Positions 994 to 62,632 of a DNA stretch of 64,000 nt are shown here, in pieces. The position numbers were made by a program, and so were the translations under genes. How positions within the stretch are numbered: the stretch's first letter is position 1; every line of letters starts with the position of its first letter. The notes below the pieces were generated by a model. That model did not search any database, was not told the DNA's origin, and saw only the letters and a program-made list of their open reading frames with translations. The DNA is taken from NCBI GenBank assembly GCA_964016885.1, contig OZ024741.1, forward strand, positions 297,600,001 to 297,664,000, read 5' to 3'. This DNA comes from Eledone cirrhosa. Taxonomy: Eukaryota.

Positions 994-1651
994 TTGTTAT
1001 ACTTTGGGAGGGTCATGTTGCCAATAAGAAACACACGCACCAGTTGCTTTCACTTCAATTTATTATAATAAATTTATAAATTTAGGAATTTATAAATTTC
1101 CGGTTGGTTGGTTGGTTCCACAACCAGATGGTTGTTTATATATTGTCAAAGTTCTTTCGTCACACATTCTGTGACCTCTTCAGTGACTGGGGATTCTTTT
1201 CTTTGTTTTTGTGCCTCTCCTTTGTTCTGTCCTACGCCATTTTGTTTCTGTGTGTGTGTTGTGTGCTCAGTCTGCGCATGCGCCACATCCGGGTGTCTGT
1301 GTGTGTGTGTTTATATTTACAAATAAATAAACGAATATAAACACACACACACAGACACCCGGATGTGGCGCATGCGCAGACTGAGCACACAACACACACA
1401 CAGAAACAAAATGGCGTAGGACAGAACAAAGGAAAGGCACAAAAACAAAGAAAAGAATCCCCAGTCACTGAAGAGGTCACAGAATGTGTGACGAAAGAAC
1501 TTTGACAATATATAAACAACCATCTGGTTGTGGAACCAACCAACCGGAAATTTATAAATTCCTAAATTTATAAATTTATTATAATAAATTGAAGTGAAAG
1601 CAACTGGTGTGTGTTTCTTATTGGCAACATGACCTTCCCAAAGTATAACAA
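994..1651. mobile_element. Fold-back (about 320-bp arms) copy of a PLE 3' end/pseudo-LTR
   Basis: Near-perfect inverted arms. The terminus ATACTTTGGGAGGGTCATG is shared with the PLE at 2245 and resembles that of the palindrome at 31059. Flanked by (TA)n. Confidence 0.85.
1464..1506 (+). ncRNA. Type I hammerhead-like motif (mirror copy 1145-1187 on -)
   Basis: GTCA-CTGAAGA-g-GTCACA-gaatg-TGTGAC-GAAA-GAAC-TT-TGAC. Stem III is weak and not palindromic. Confidence 0.65.
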
Positions 1652-1805
1652 CAATATATATATATATATATATATATATATATATATATATATTAACGTG
1701 AAAAATACCTGTTAATCATTCAATCGAATATGTTACAAGCATTTTGATAAATTATATTGCTTTTTGTTTTATTTTGTTTTGTTTTTTCTTTTGCATCTAC
1801 TCAAG

Positions 1806-1929
1806 AGTGACACACATACAGCTATGAACATGTACAATTATGTTGAGGACTTTCAACTCTACTCCACCTTTGATATCGACACCTGTTTCGGAGTGAATGG
1901 CAGATTAGATTACAGCTTTGAAATTATCG
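1806..1929 (+). CDS. Internal exon of host membrane-protein gene (SDTHTAMNMYNYVEDFQLYSTFDIDTCFGVNGRLDYSFEII-G)
   Basis: Polypyrimidine tract then AAG acceptor (alternative CAG at 1821). Donor G|GTATGA at 1930. The phase-1 end matches the phase-1 start of the 5949 exon. Confidence 0.65.
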
Positions 1930-1963
1930 GTATGAAATGTTTGTTATTATCAATATTAGTCTT

Positions 1964-2180
1964 AGGGTGGCGGTTTGGCAGAATCGGTAGATCGTTGGAT
2001 ACCATGCTTTGTAGCATAGAGTTACGGCCCTTTAAGTTCTGAGTTAAAATCCCGCCGAGGTTAGCTTTACCTTTCATCCTTACAGGGTCGATAAAATAAA
2101 GTACCAGTAATGTACTGGGGTCGATGTAGTCAACTTTCCCCTCCCCCAAATTGCTGGCCTTGTGCCTATAGTAGAAACCA
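1964..2180 (+). mobile_element. tRNA-derived SINE with Nin-like central domain
   Basis: A-box TGGCAGAATCGG, B-box-like GAGTTAAAATCC, then CCTTTCATCCT...GGTCGATAAAATAAAGTACCAG. Many copies in the window. Confidence 0.8.
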
Positions 2181-59170: not shown

Positions 59171-59184
59171 ACTGATTATACAGA

Positions 59185-59873
59185 GCTTTTAATTAAGCAT
59201 ACAGTGTATTGCAAAATACACTATATATACATTCATATATATATCGCTATTTCAGAGCACCAATTCTAATTTTCAATTTCTGCTTGACCGGTAACCGCTC
59301 TGTATAAGCAGTTCCTGATTATTACTAAGAATTCTATAAGAATCAAACATTCATGATTTTCAGCAAACAAGAGGAGTAATTAGCTTTGATAAGCATAAAA
59401 AAATGCGAAACAGAGCTCTGTCAGCTTCATCTCCCCTGTTTGCTGAAAATTAAAGTAAGTGAGACTGTCACTAATCTAAAACAATAGCATAAGGTCTTCG
59501 AAATGCTTTTAATTAAGCATACAGTGTATTGCAAAATACACTATATATATATATTCATATATATATCGCTACTTCAGAGCACCAATTCAAATTTTCAATA
59601 TCTGCTTGACCGGCAATCGCTCTGTATAATCAGTTCCTGATTATTACTAAGAATTCTATAAGAATCAAACATTCATGATTTTCAGCAAACAAGAGGAGTA
59701 GTTAGCTTTGATAAGCATAAAAAAATGCGAAACAGAGCTCTGTCAGCTTTATTTCCCCTGTTTGCTGAAATCTAAAGTGAGACTGTCACTAAGCTAAAAC
59801 AATAGCATAAGCTCTTCGAAATGCTTTTAATTAAGCATACAGTGTATTGCAAAATACACTATATATACATTCA
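59185..59873 (+). repeat. About 2.1 tandem copies of a 322-bp HHR unit related to the 310-bp family
   Basis: Shares ATATATATCGCTATTTCAGAGCA, GACCGGyAACCGCTCT, CAGTTCCTG, CTAAGnATTCTATAAG and AGGTCTTCnAAATG with the reverse complement of the 310-bp unit. Confidence 0.88.
59382..59426 (+). ncRNA. Variant hammerhead (U3-A8 core); second copy 59704-59748
   Basis: AGCT-TTGATAA-GCAT-aaaaaa-ATGC-GAAA-CAGAGCTCTG-TC-AGCT, with distal stem ATTTTCAGCAAACA/TGTTTGCTGAAAAT. Confidence 0.8.
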
Positions 59874-59891
59874 TATATATATATATATATA

Positions 59892-62632
59892 TAGAAGTGG
59901 TTACACAACAGTTAGTTCATCATACCGAGAATAATTGTTTCACCTTAGCGGAAGTTTTTAGGTTGAAAATGAAATTACAAAGAATCAGTCCGAAGCCTTG
60001 TAGTTATGCAATAGCTGTTTGACGACGTGTGGACAACGTGTGAAAAATTCATTTCTCGTGTTTAGGCAATCACTATTGCGTAATCTCTTTAGAATAGTTA
60101 TTCGTTCGTCAATACATAAGCCACACGACGGATTTCCCCTTGCGTATGGCTTGGACTTAGCGATGGCTTTTCATTGAATGGAGTAGTCTATACTTGAGTC
60201 CTTGAGGGACCATACGTGGCTCGCGAGTTTCGTACATGAACGTCTGTCCGGGCACCTGAAGGTAGACTGGTGGTTCAGGAAACGTTCCTTAAATCGGCCA
60301 TCCGCCATGCCCACATAGGAGTTGACCTCCTGTGGCTCGTTTAGTCGGTTGGAAGTGACCACAGCTTCATAAATTACAGCTGGTGTGTTGCATTGTTGTT
60401 GAAGGGGGAAAGCTTCAGGCTTATGATGGCGAGCCCTAGCTTTTGCGGGCAATATTACAGGCACCAACAACGCCTTCAGCCTGAAATCGAGAGCCTACCC
60501 TCCTAAGGTAACTGAACTTGCTCCTTTCGAGACGGACCTTCTTGACTTAGTCGCTAACGTTTCCTTTCGCAAACACACTAACCCCTTTCAAACGAAACTC
60601 AGAAATGACATTAAGAAATTTAGGTCTTCTAATAACACCTTCGTTCTTTCCGACAAAACTAACAATATTTACGAAGTCGACAACACCACTTTCCGCCACC
60701 TGGCCCATAACGCTATTACTTCTAAATATAAGAAAGCTAACCCTATGGCCTACCACGACATTAATACAGAAGCCAAGGAACTTGCCGCCGCCCTTAAGGT
60801 AGATAAGAAGCTACAATCTCTAGCTAAGCGGGAGGCGTTCCTCACCCTGAAAGATCACAAGGTAGACTTTACTTCTAACCCCACATGTAGACTAATAAAC
60901 CCGGCACGCACAGATATGGGACTAGTCAGTAAGGCCATACTTAGAAACATAGTTAAGACCATTAGGACCAAGTCCAACCTGCCCCAGTGGGAGAACAGCG
61001 ACTCCGTAATTAAGTGGTTTAACTCCTTAAAATCCAAAAAAGCGAAGTTCACACAGTTTGACATTGTCGATTTTTACACGTCGATCTCAGAGACCCTCTT
61101 AAACAAAGCGTTGGACTTCGCTATCACTTATACCACCCTCGATGGTTTAGACAGGGAAATCATCGCTCACTGCCGGAAAACCCTCCACTTCAACGACGGA
61201 GTAGCCTGGGCAAAGAAGTCTACAACTTCAGACCTATTCGACGTCTCCATGGGATCGTTTGACAGTGCTGACTTGGTTGGCCTATTTATCTTAGACATAT
61301 TACGTGTTAGATTCCCGGACTTCCACACGGGAATATACCGTGATGATGGACTGACTTTATCGAGCCATAAAAGTGGTCACGACCTCGACCGGTTTAAAAA
61401 AGAGTTAGCTTCTACCTTCAATGAGTTAGGATTTAGGATAACATTAGCCACCAACCTCTCTAGCGTAGATTTCTTAGACATTAATTTAGACCTTCGCACA
61501 CACACCCACAGACCCTTCCATAAGCTAAACGAGAAACTCAATTACATTCACAAGGACTTATGCCACCCTCCCACTGTTTTTAGAAACTTCGTTAAGAATA
61601 TCAGTACTAGAATCTCAAACCTCTCCTCTAATAAGGCTATCTTTGATAGAGCGGCACCCTACTATTACACGGCGTTAGCTAACAGCGGCTTCTCGCAACC
61701 TATCACTTACTCTCCCAATAACAACAACAGCAATAAGAAAAGTAAGCGTAACAATAGACAGACTATCTGGTTCTCTCCTCCCTTCTCACTCAACGTTAAA
61801 ACCAATGTAGGAAAAACATTTCCAGCCCTCTTAGATAGACACTTCCAAATAGGTCATAAATACCGCTCCATCTTTAACCGACACAAAGTTAAACTAGGAT
61901 ACTCCTGCGCTAAGAACATGAAGGCCCACATCACCAGCAACCCCAGGAGCAACACCCCACCAGGGTGCGCTTGCCCCTTTCAACAGCAATGCAACACACC
62001 AGCTGTAATTTATGAAGCTGTGGTCACTTCCAACCGACCAAACGAACCACAGTAGGTCAAATCCTATGTGGGCATGGCGGAGGGCCGATTTAAGGAACGT
62101 TTCCTGAACCACCAGTCTACTTCCAGGTACCCGGACAGATGTTCATCTACGAAACTCGCGAGCCACGTATGGTCCCTCAAGGACTCAAGTATAGACTACT
62201 CCATTCAATGGAAAGCCATCACTAAGTCCAAGCCATACGCAAGGGGAAATCCGACGTGTGGCTTATGTATTGACGAACGAATAACTATTCTAAAGAGATT
62301 ACGCAATAGTGATTGCCTAAACACGAGAAATGAATTTTTCACACGTTGTCCACACGTCGCCAAACACCTATTACATAACTACAAGGCTCCGGACTGATTC
62401 TTTGTAATTTTATTTTCAAGCTAAAAACTTTTCGGACTTTCGCAGTTATCTCCCTTACACCTCTCGCACGCAGTCTAGTATTGCCTGTGTAAAGTGACAG
62501 GGTTTCTGCACATGCGCGTTCGTACGGTTGTCCTTCCTGTTCCTATAACCATGCCCATTCCGAGCTGAGGATCCGCTAAGGTGAAACAATTGTTCTCGGT
62601 ATGGTGAACTAACTGTTGTTTAACCACTTCTA
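59892..62632 (+). mobile_element. Penelope-like element (Hydra-like) with upstream inverted 3' copy (59892-60415)
   Basis: RT motifs KDHK..F...PTCRLINP, FDIVDFY, MGSFD, YRDDG. GIY-YIG segments VIYEAVV...YVGMAE...FKERF..H and CGLC..E, LNTRNE. Stop at 62053. Inverted partial copy is typical of PLEs. Confidence 0.92.
62555..62604 (+). ncRNA. Minimal hammerhead in PLE 3' pseudo-LTR
   Basis: CCATt CCGAG-CTGAGGA-tCCgctaaGGt-GAAA-CAATTG-TT-CTCGG tATGG. Confidence 0.82.

Follow-up and report, generated by a model that had tools for sequence, protein, structure and literature searches.

Hammerhead-bearing inserts of the window

The transposition of Penelope-like elements (PLEs) is poorly understood. 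Here, we analysed a stretch of 64,000 nt from the genome of Eledone cirrhosa (GCA_964016885.1, contig OZ024741.1, positions 297,600,001 to 297,664,000 of the forward strand), which is called the window. It has 31% GC, and tracts of (TA)6 or longer make up 14.9% of it versus 4.2% of the genome samples described below. The window carries 12 listed families of inserts with a hammerhead ribozyme motif, named A to K and W. We are fairly confident that it is a TA-rich landing zone in which seven of these families are the pseudo-long terminal repeats (pLTRs) of coding PLEs and four are retrozymes that are likely copied in trans by PLEs.

The window was scanned with a strict type I hammerhead descriptor, which gave 30 matches, against a mean of 0.05 per set in 40 block-wise dinucleotide shuffles. 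When helix II was allowed up to 140 nt in a relaxed descriptor, 33 matches were found in the window and none in any of the 40 shuffles; 22 of these 33 fall inside the two 310-nt arrays of family G. The motifs show the type I core CUGANGA...GAAA...UH with helices I to III. Against this AT-rich control the type I hammerheads of the window are real, and self-cleavage at UH is predicted. By scanning and reading by hand, a hammerhead-like motif was found at every site listed in the preliminary description.

The following features were recognised (window positions; the strand is given where one was assigned; long and short refer to the two fixed 3' ends of a family; ORF, open reading frame; RT, reverse transcriptase).

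933..1654: family A (1468), two-armed pLTR stub with one long and one short end; from a PLE with a Neptune-type linker
2244..4029, minus: broken PLE of the family A group, with RT and GIY-YIG pieces at 2785-4029; interrupted by family B
4030..4588: family B (4474), two-armed stub of a Hydra-type PLE; long end 4030, short end 4588
11313..11661, minus: family C (11508), hammerhead and Hydra-type tail hairpin at 11452; in neither class
12412..12974: family D (12625), two-armed stub of a young Hydra PLE; hairpin at 12842
13267..13663: family E (13467), two-armed Hydra PLE stub; hairpin at 13578
13808..14732: family F (14400), ORF-less 465-nt retrozyme, partial tandem with an inverted arm; no Hydra hairpin
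17217..21880, minus: family G, 15 ORF-less 310-nt retrozyme units between TA tracts
25330..25500, minus: family H relative, hammerhead 25455
25574..26709, minus: family I (25726), ORF-less unit of about 845 nt, partial tandem; hairpin at 25668
26750..27255: family J (27100), ORF-less 486-nt retrozyme, two-armed
27503..29702: second array of family G, six hammerheads (minus) and an inverted arm at 29533 (plus); long end 27503, short end 29702
30499..30770: further fold-back with a U3-A8 core at 30608 (minus); same family in L388 and L389
30780..30990, plus: family D relative, hammerhead 30825, helix II of 81 nt
37084..37757: family K (37641), two-armed Hydra PLE stub with U4C cores (37646, 37271); hairpin at 37180
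37913..38174, plus: family H stub, hammerhead 37987
39650..39902, minus: family H stub, hammerhead 39848, hairpin 39742
44045..44219, plus: family H stub, decayed core 44118
59185..59867, plus: two 320-nt units, relatives of family G, U3-A8 cores at 59386 and 59708
59892..62660, plus: W, 5'-truncated Hydra-clade PLE; inverted arm 59892-60413, pLTR hammerhead 62565

Canonical cores were found on the plus strand at 12632, 13473, 14407, 27105, 30825, 37987 and 62565, and on the minus strand at 4231, 11561, 12616, 13367, 25455 and 39848. In family G, they recur from 17395 to 21735 (minus, 15 units) and from 27699 to 29249 (minus, six), with one at 29533 (plus). The family A hammerheads at 1468 (plus) and 1183 (minus) combine a canonical core with a weak, non-palindromic helix III. 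Altered cores occur at 4479 (G8A), 44118 (C3U) and 25831 (G8A); since other copies of their families have the canonical core, these are cases of single-copy decay. The units at 59386 and 59708 have a covariant U3-A8 core. The counts of other compensatory cores (G3-C8, A3-U8) were no higher than in shuffles. At 37646, the core carries U4C, read as CCGAAGA in the six commonest family K variants (33 copies matched). This change is common to the copies of a coding Hydra family, and it may be an inactive or a tolerated variant. At 26660, the GAAA half of the hammerhead is missing. An Rfam scan recognised one of the listed sites, as HH9 at 14389-14459 (31.8 bits, below the cut-off of 52), and otherwise gave miRNA-type hairpin noise in the window.

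A (TA)5 tract lies within 341 nt downstream at 22 of the 25 sites checked. The exceptions are 11561, which ends in a short TA plus (CA)n, 26660 and 62565, whose tail is cut by another insert; the inverted arm of the same element adjoins TA at 59892.

The preliminary description had counted at least 11 unrelated families. Motifs are present at all of its sites and its list was even incomplete, but several of the families are related (66-80%): the identity is 77% between 25455 and 37987 (over 103 nt), 80% between 30825 and 12632 (over 152 nt) and 66% between the 310- and 320-nt units. At least three further families lie in the window, one at 30608 (minus, U3-A8) and two as half-hammerheads at 24060/42404 and at 42661. 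The fold-backs at 24060-24207 and 42404-42610 contain the 3' half of a U3-A8 hammerhead, a 17-nt palindromic helix III and a tail hairpin, and their family recurs in the genome samples.

The genome was sampled with 60 evenly spaced 10-kb stretches of its 3.0 Gb. These gave 41 canonical-core matches, compared to 0-2 per shuffled set. The density of 68 per Mb extrapolates to about 2x10^5 motifs per genome, and this is a minimum, as truncated or variant motifs escape the scan. In a U3-A8 scan of the samples, eight of 15 matches were one simple repeat in L355 and were discounted. The sampled matches form 22 families (Chao1 about 42), and 38 hammerhead clusters were found across all 1.87 Mb examined (<0.1% of the genome). 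Among the 40 assessable sampled hammerheads, 37 had a (TA)5 within 400 nt downstream, versus 18% of control positions, so the TA targeting proposed earlier was confirmed. Helix III contains a perfect palindrome in 28 of the 41. The window is about three times denser in hammerheads than the samples when arrays are collapsed, in step with its TA content. Pieces of PLE ORFs were found in 15 of the 60 stretches. A genome search with the 310-nt unit gave no match, probably from too-common words, and the full unit was found in 0/60 samples.

Helix II spans 12-116 nt among the sampled hammerheads and at least 63 nt in nine of the 41, so that scans for short helices II miss many of them. In family D, helix II has 114 nt and forms a rod of about 100 nt with 97.9% of the cells paired across 10 copies (118-153 nt). 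Across a looser group of families, the base of helix II covaries. More families with helices II of 79-97 nt, some of them branched, were seen at L380:6987-7120 and L337:8131-8264 and in L345, L351, L121 and L192.

Coding elements and ORF-less tandem units

Ten families were each followed in their 30 best-matching loci, 19 of which were extended. As the loci were picked by similarity to the window copies, the following fractions for ORFs and periods are not genome-wide rates. Seven of the 12 families (A, B, D, E, H, K and W) lie on PLE ORFs, six of the Hydra clade and one with a Neptune-type linker. Their attachment to PLE ORFs identifies the short copies as pLTR stubs.

In family A, the endonuclease was found on the same strand 289-347 nt upstream in 14/30 loci. 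In L057 and L162, a CX4CxxC linker precedes the C-terminal GIY-YIG domain, which agrees with the CX2-5CxxC of the Neptune type. By this linker rather than by a tree, the family A PLE may be Neptune-type, with Nematis as an alternative. The broken PLE at 2244..4029 has matches to RVT_1 (8e-05) and GIY-YIG (0.035), both below cut-off, and its 3' untranslated region (UTR) shares 83-86% identity with the arm of family A in stretches of 115 and 76 nt. Family B was also considered as the 5' pLTR of the PLE at 2785-4029 and rejected; it is an insert of its own, and the ORF listed at 3763-4098 opens with 24 residues of family B tail.

For the other coding families, the ORF was found as follows. Family B has a degraded Hydra-type endonuclease upstream in one of 30 loci (L315, E 1e-12). 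In family D, the ORF starts 237-238 nt downstream in 3/30 loci, and L327 holds a complete pLTR-ORF-pLTR unit of 5471 nt. In L351, the subfamily of 30825 lies 980 nt downstream of an endonuclease. A Hydra-type endonuclease is located 959-1145 nt upstream of family E in 3/30 loci, with an ORF start downstream in L159, and 1299-1335 nt upstream of family K in 3/30 loci, with a pLTR-ORF-pLTR unit in L322. For family H, the endonuclease is about 1.6 kb upstream in L318, one of three extended loci, and 1.35 kb upstream of a relative in L316. The pLTR hammerhead of W is attached to its ORF within the window (60427-62397, one internal stop).

The motifs RWR and SDKT are present in L005 (W) and L327 (D), and RWR in the family K ORF of L322. 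The linker CxCX5C was found in L005, L322 and L328, and the ORFs of W, D and K end in a GIY-YIG domain with CxxC and CxH. Pfam GIY-YIG gave no match to these three endonucleases, weak matches below cut-off being ignored. By RWR, DKT in place of DKG and the linker, W, D and K appear to belong to the Hydra clade. The W protein by eye resembles Hydra-1_Obim, and the motifs bore out the Hydra-like assignment that had been made for 59892-62632. A genome search for the W element gave 83 matches from 80 scored candidates. The 3' UTRs of Hydra elements are 1.0-2.6 kb here, and therefore their short copies look ORF-less.

Four families, F (465 nt), G (310 nt), I (about 845 nt) and J (486 nt), are closed ORF-less tandem units and hence non-LTR (long terminal repeat) retrozymes. 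Each unit has one type I hammerhead, the longest stop-free stretch is 46-130 aa, and no match to a PLE protein was obtained. Family F showed a period of 459-469 in 24/30 loci, some of them overlapping, and L329 contains 11 head-to-tail and three inverted units. The first array of family G has 15 units, with 0-1 differences among the 14 compared. Family I has a period of 829-852 in 10/30 loci and a branched helix II of 74-84 nt, and family J a period of 483-486 in 6/30 loci. F and J are dispersed over many contigs, 96-99% identical, and have two fixed ends at TA tracts. Expression of F, G, I and J as linear and circular unit RNA is predicted. A search of sequencing runs with the family D element listed no RNA run, which carries no information on expression. 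Family C stands in neither class: one closed 2188-nt repeat was found in L311, of which no other locus showed the closing 400 nt.

Both non-coding parasites and pLTR remnants, as had been suggested, thus occur. They are not mostly parasites, since remnants dominate with seven of 12 families against four units.

The two ends and the tail hairpin

Nine families have two fixed 3' ends that are 60-140 nt apart. Among 99 two-armed inserts, 87 combined a long with a short end, three had two long ends, none had two short ends and nine had an irregular end. In five families whose query ended at the short site, and hence without selection for long ends, the combination was seen in 42 of 48 inserts. The rule is common to the stubs derived from coding elements and to the ORF-less families F (14/18) and J (11/12), and by inspection also to the second array of family G. 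In family I, only long ends were seen in 30 loci. An inverted, 5'-truncated arm, a one-sided tail and a preference for (TA)n targets, which characterise the insertion of endonuclease-positive (EN+) PLEs, were all found here. The two-armed inserts with one long and one short end are an addition to the published picture.

A hairpin starts 2-12 nt past the short end, with the form R(C/T)TC-stem-loop-stem-bulge-GA(G/A)Y. It was found within 16 nt of this end in 7/16 copies of family B, 19/26 of C, 14/16 of D, 26/33 of E, 23/28 of H, 17/22 of J and 13/17 of K, at a shuffle rate of at most 0.026. The descriptor was written with the tails already seen and was broadened a single time for the GTTC/GAAC form, which means that these rates do not come from a blind test. 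W and I also carry the hairpin, and it occurs in five of eight long copies of the 25455 cluster, whereas it was found in none of 27 copies of family A. In the window copy of family J it lies at 26818-26853 (minus), past the short end. Of the 38 clusters, 27 have long copies and 15 show the hairpin. The inner stems vary by family with the pairing kept. The hairpin occurs strand-specifically at a constant offset from both ends and accommodates loops of 3-100 nt.

D, W and J have a second hairpin 7-10 nt beyond the long end, and E has a short form of it. The second hairpin was not seen in family C, and read-through copies to assess it were not available for B, H and K. In the 600 kb of samples, the hairpin motif gave 50 matches. 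A signal common to A, F and G was sought, and only a 5-nt TATCG beside some ends was found, which is too weak. Tail hairpins at 813, 4891 and 27398 belong to short inserts that break off before reaching a hammerhead; a search for the hairpin can reveal stubs that escape a hammerhead scan.

By eye, the hairpin is also present in the published consensus sequences of Hydra-2_Amil, Hydra-1_Ajap and Hydra-2_Ajap from coral and sea cucumber, and imperfectly in Hydra-1_Crog. In the literature searched we found neither the tail hairpin nor octopus hammerhead families, and the words hairpin and stem-loop are absent from the main text of PMC8557442. The hairpin is a candidate start signal for reverse transcription. 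We consider it evenly balanced whether Hydra-clade RTs locate two internal start sites via paired hairpins, one for each RT subunit, and whether the 486-nt retrozyme J has kept both and hijacks the enzyme. If this is true, the hairpin would be the first defined cis-signal linking a retrozyme to a specific PLE clade, and F and G would ride another clade.

Proposed mode of copying and its alternatives

We propose that the GIY-YIG endonuclease would cut both strands in (TA)n and that two RT subunits would prime from the two DNA ends at two internal sites of the RNA, in analogy to the lizard Poseidon element. Most cDNAs would end after 100-500 nt and join in the middle of the insert, giving the hammerhead-bearing fold-backs. 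The hairpin would bind or position the RT, and the 486-nt retrozyme would use it to borrow the Hydra enzyme. By comparison with other animals, the hammerheads would cut tandem transcripts as dimers via the palindromic helix III, the monomers would circularise, and copying of more than a unit would produce partial tandems and arrays. Retrozymes would supply tandem or circular templates, and their ORF-less units are likely copied in trans by PLE enzymes. To our knowledge, there are proposals for the enzyme that mobilises animal retrozymes, but it has yet to be identified.

For Poseidon_Ac in vitro, two internal RT start sites set the tail length and both strands are cut (PMC11167929). Several points weigh against our reading. 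The ORF links of families B and H come from one or two loci, and family C has no ORF link in at least 1.8 kb of common upstream DNA. At least two inserts were counted twice among the 99 (L012/L013, L195/L215). No retrozyme unit matched the pLTR of any coding PLE in the 1.87 Mb, family I carries the hairpin yet showed a short end and inverted arm in 0/30 loci, and the Hydra hairpin is absent in F (0/47) and G. In the long helix of family D, one pair was changed on both sides; 91 of 500 shuffles scored as high, so that its covariation was not significant. In addition, hammerhead cleavage was dispensable for insertion in vitro, where no reads ended at the cut site (PMC11167929), and eight of nine Xenopus retrozyme dimers were uncleaved (10.64898/2026.07.22.740005).

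These last two findings would be expected if most hammerheads were silent passengers and the tail hairpin acted at the DNA level or as a promoter element rather than as an RT start signal. The tail of the D. virilis element, which is needed for recognition of DNA by the endonuclease (cited in PMC11167929), also fits, as does the position of the tail before the ORF start, a possible promoter site. However, the core is kept across 38 clusters with differing stems, including the compensatory U3-A8, and the strand specificity, loop tolerance and constant offsets of the hairpin also speak against this view. We therefore regard this explanation as possible but doubtful.

The ORF-less arrays could also be ordinary satellites, in which unequal crossover at the DNA level, with no RNA step, amplified a pLTR stub that had been duplicated once. 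The near identity of the 310-nt units within an array is consistent with this, and such a route is discussed in a preprint (10.64898/2026.07.22.740005). But the scattering of F and J, their fixed ends at TA tracts and their long and short arms are the footprint of insertion and not a product of crossover, which makes a satellite origin improbable. Long arrays may have expanded later at the DNA level. That all families are independent non-coding retrozymes mimicking PLE insertion, with ORFs as chance neighbours, is very improbable and is refuted for A, D, E, K and W: although most copies of every family are short and ORF-less and PLE ORF pieces are common in the samples, the endonuclease lies at constant distance and strand in independent loci (14 for A, three each for E and K), the DNA homology between loci is continuous and D and K have complete pLTR-ORF-pLTR units; some force is left for B and H.

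We thus prefer copying by PLE enzymes, and related systems have been described. In 2014, many hammerhead families per genome were reported, mostly in truncated PLEs and often as opposite-strand pairs 100-700 bp apart (PMC4209133), and in 2021, hammerheads and (TA)n insertion were described for the Hydra clade (PMC8557442). With retrozymes published as well (PMC7229834), both kinds of element were known and the novelty is lower than the preliminary description claimed. Within the literature searched, nothing comparable was found for the scale, for so long a helix II or for a hairpin common to coding Hydra elements and the ORF-less J.

The coding elements resemble the Hydra clade of C-terminal EN+ PLEs, including Hydra-1_Obim, in RWR, DKT, the CxCX5C linker, a canonical pLTR hammerhead, insertion into (TA)n, the inverted 5'-truncated arm and the one-sided tail (PMC8557442). 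They differ in that at least six Hydra families were found here versus one given for octopus, helix II reaches 116 nt whereas it is short in all Hydra rows of File S2, and the tails are 60-140 nt rather than 30-40 (PMC8557442). As in the pLTR hammerheads of PLEs, there are many families, truncated single copies, opposite-strand pairs, palindromic helices III and a U3-A8 variant; the extrapolated 2x10^5 motifs contrast with 2,000-9,000 per genome, helix III is usually full (a 4-8-nt palindrome) and helix II much longer (PMC4209133). Like metazoan non-LTR retrozymes, the ORF-less families are dispersed, GC-poor tandems whose units measure a few hundred nt and contain a single type I hammerhead (PMC7229834, 10.64898/2026.07.22.740005). 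Unlike the published retrozymes, they show the two-end footprint of PLEs, and J has the structural signal of coding Hydra elements without sequence homology to them. Poseidon_Ac similarly has two internal RT start sites that define the tail and an AT-rich target cut on both strands, as cutting here would be; it belongs to another clade in which initiation occurs in an AC-rich stem-loop inside the ORF (PMC11167929), whereas the conserved hairpin found here is located 3' of each end at a distance of a few bases.

In this genome, coding and non-coding families that share one end rule and one candidate recognition hairpin can be compared side by side in a natural setting, and the role of the hairpin can be addressed with the in vitro assay that is already available. 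A large part of this repeat class lends itself to annotation as PLE ends.

Further repeats were noted in the window. Fold-backs in which no hammerhead was recognised lie at 22523-23134, which has a central G-run, 29755-30382, 41957-42354 and 46889-47507. Another one at 31059-31265 has an end like the family A terminus and is probably a stub of a sister PLE family. A tRNA-like Rfam match above cut-off (33.3 bits) at 42191-42261 is possibly the head of a short interspersed element. Remnants of long interspersed elements, including RVT_1 and zf-RVT, are found at 45837-46655 (minus), 47757-48959 (plus) and 62675-63663 (plus); among them is an ORF1-like piece that contains a zinc knuckle and interrupts the Hydra PLE tail. 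A broken Helitron occupies 53953-57677 (minus), with a PIF1 helicase (E 3e-56) and pieces of Helitron_like_N.

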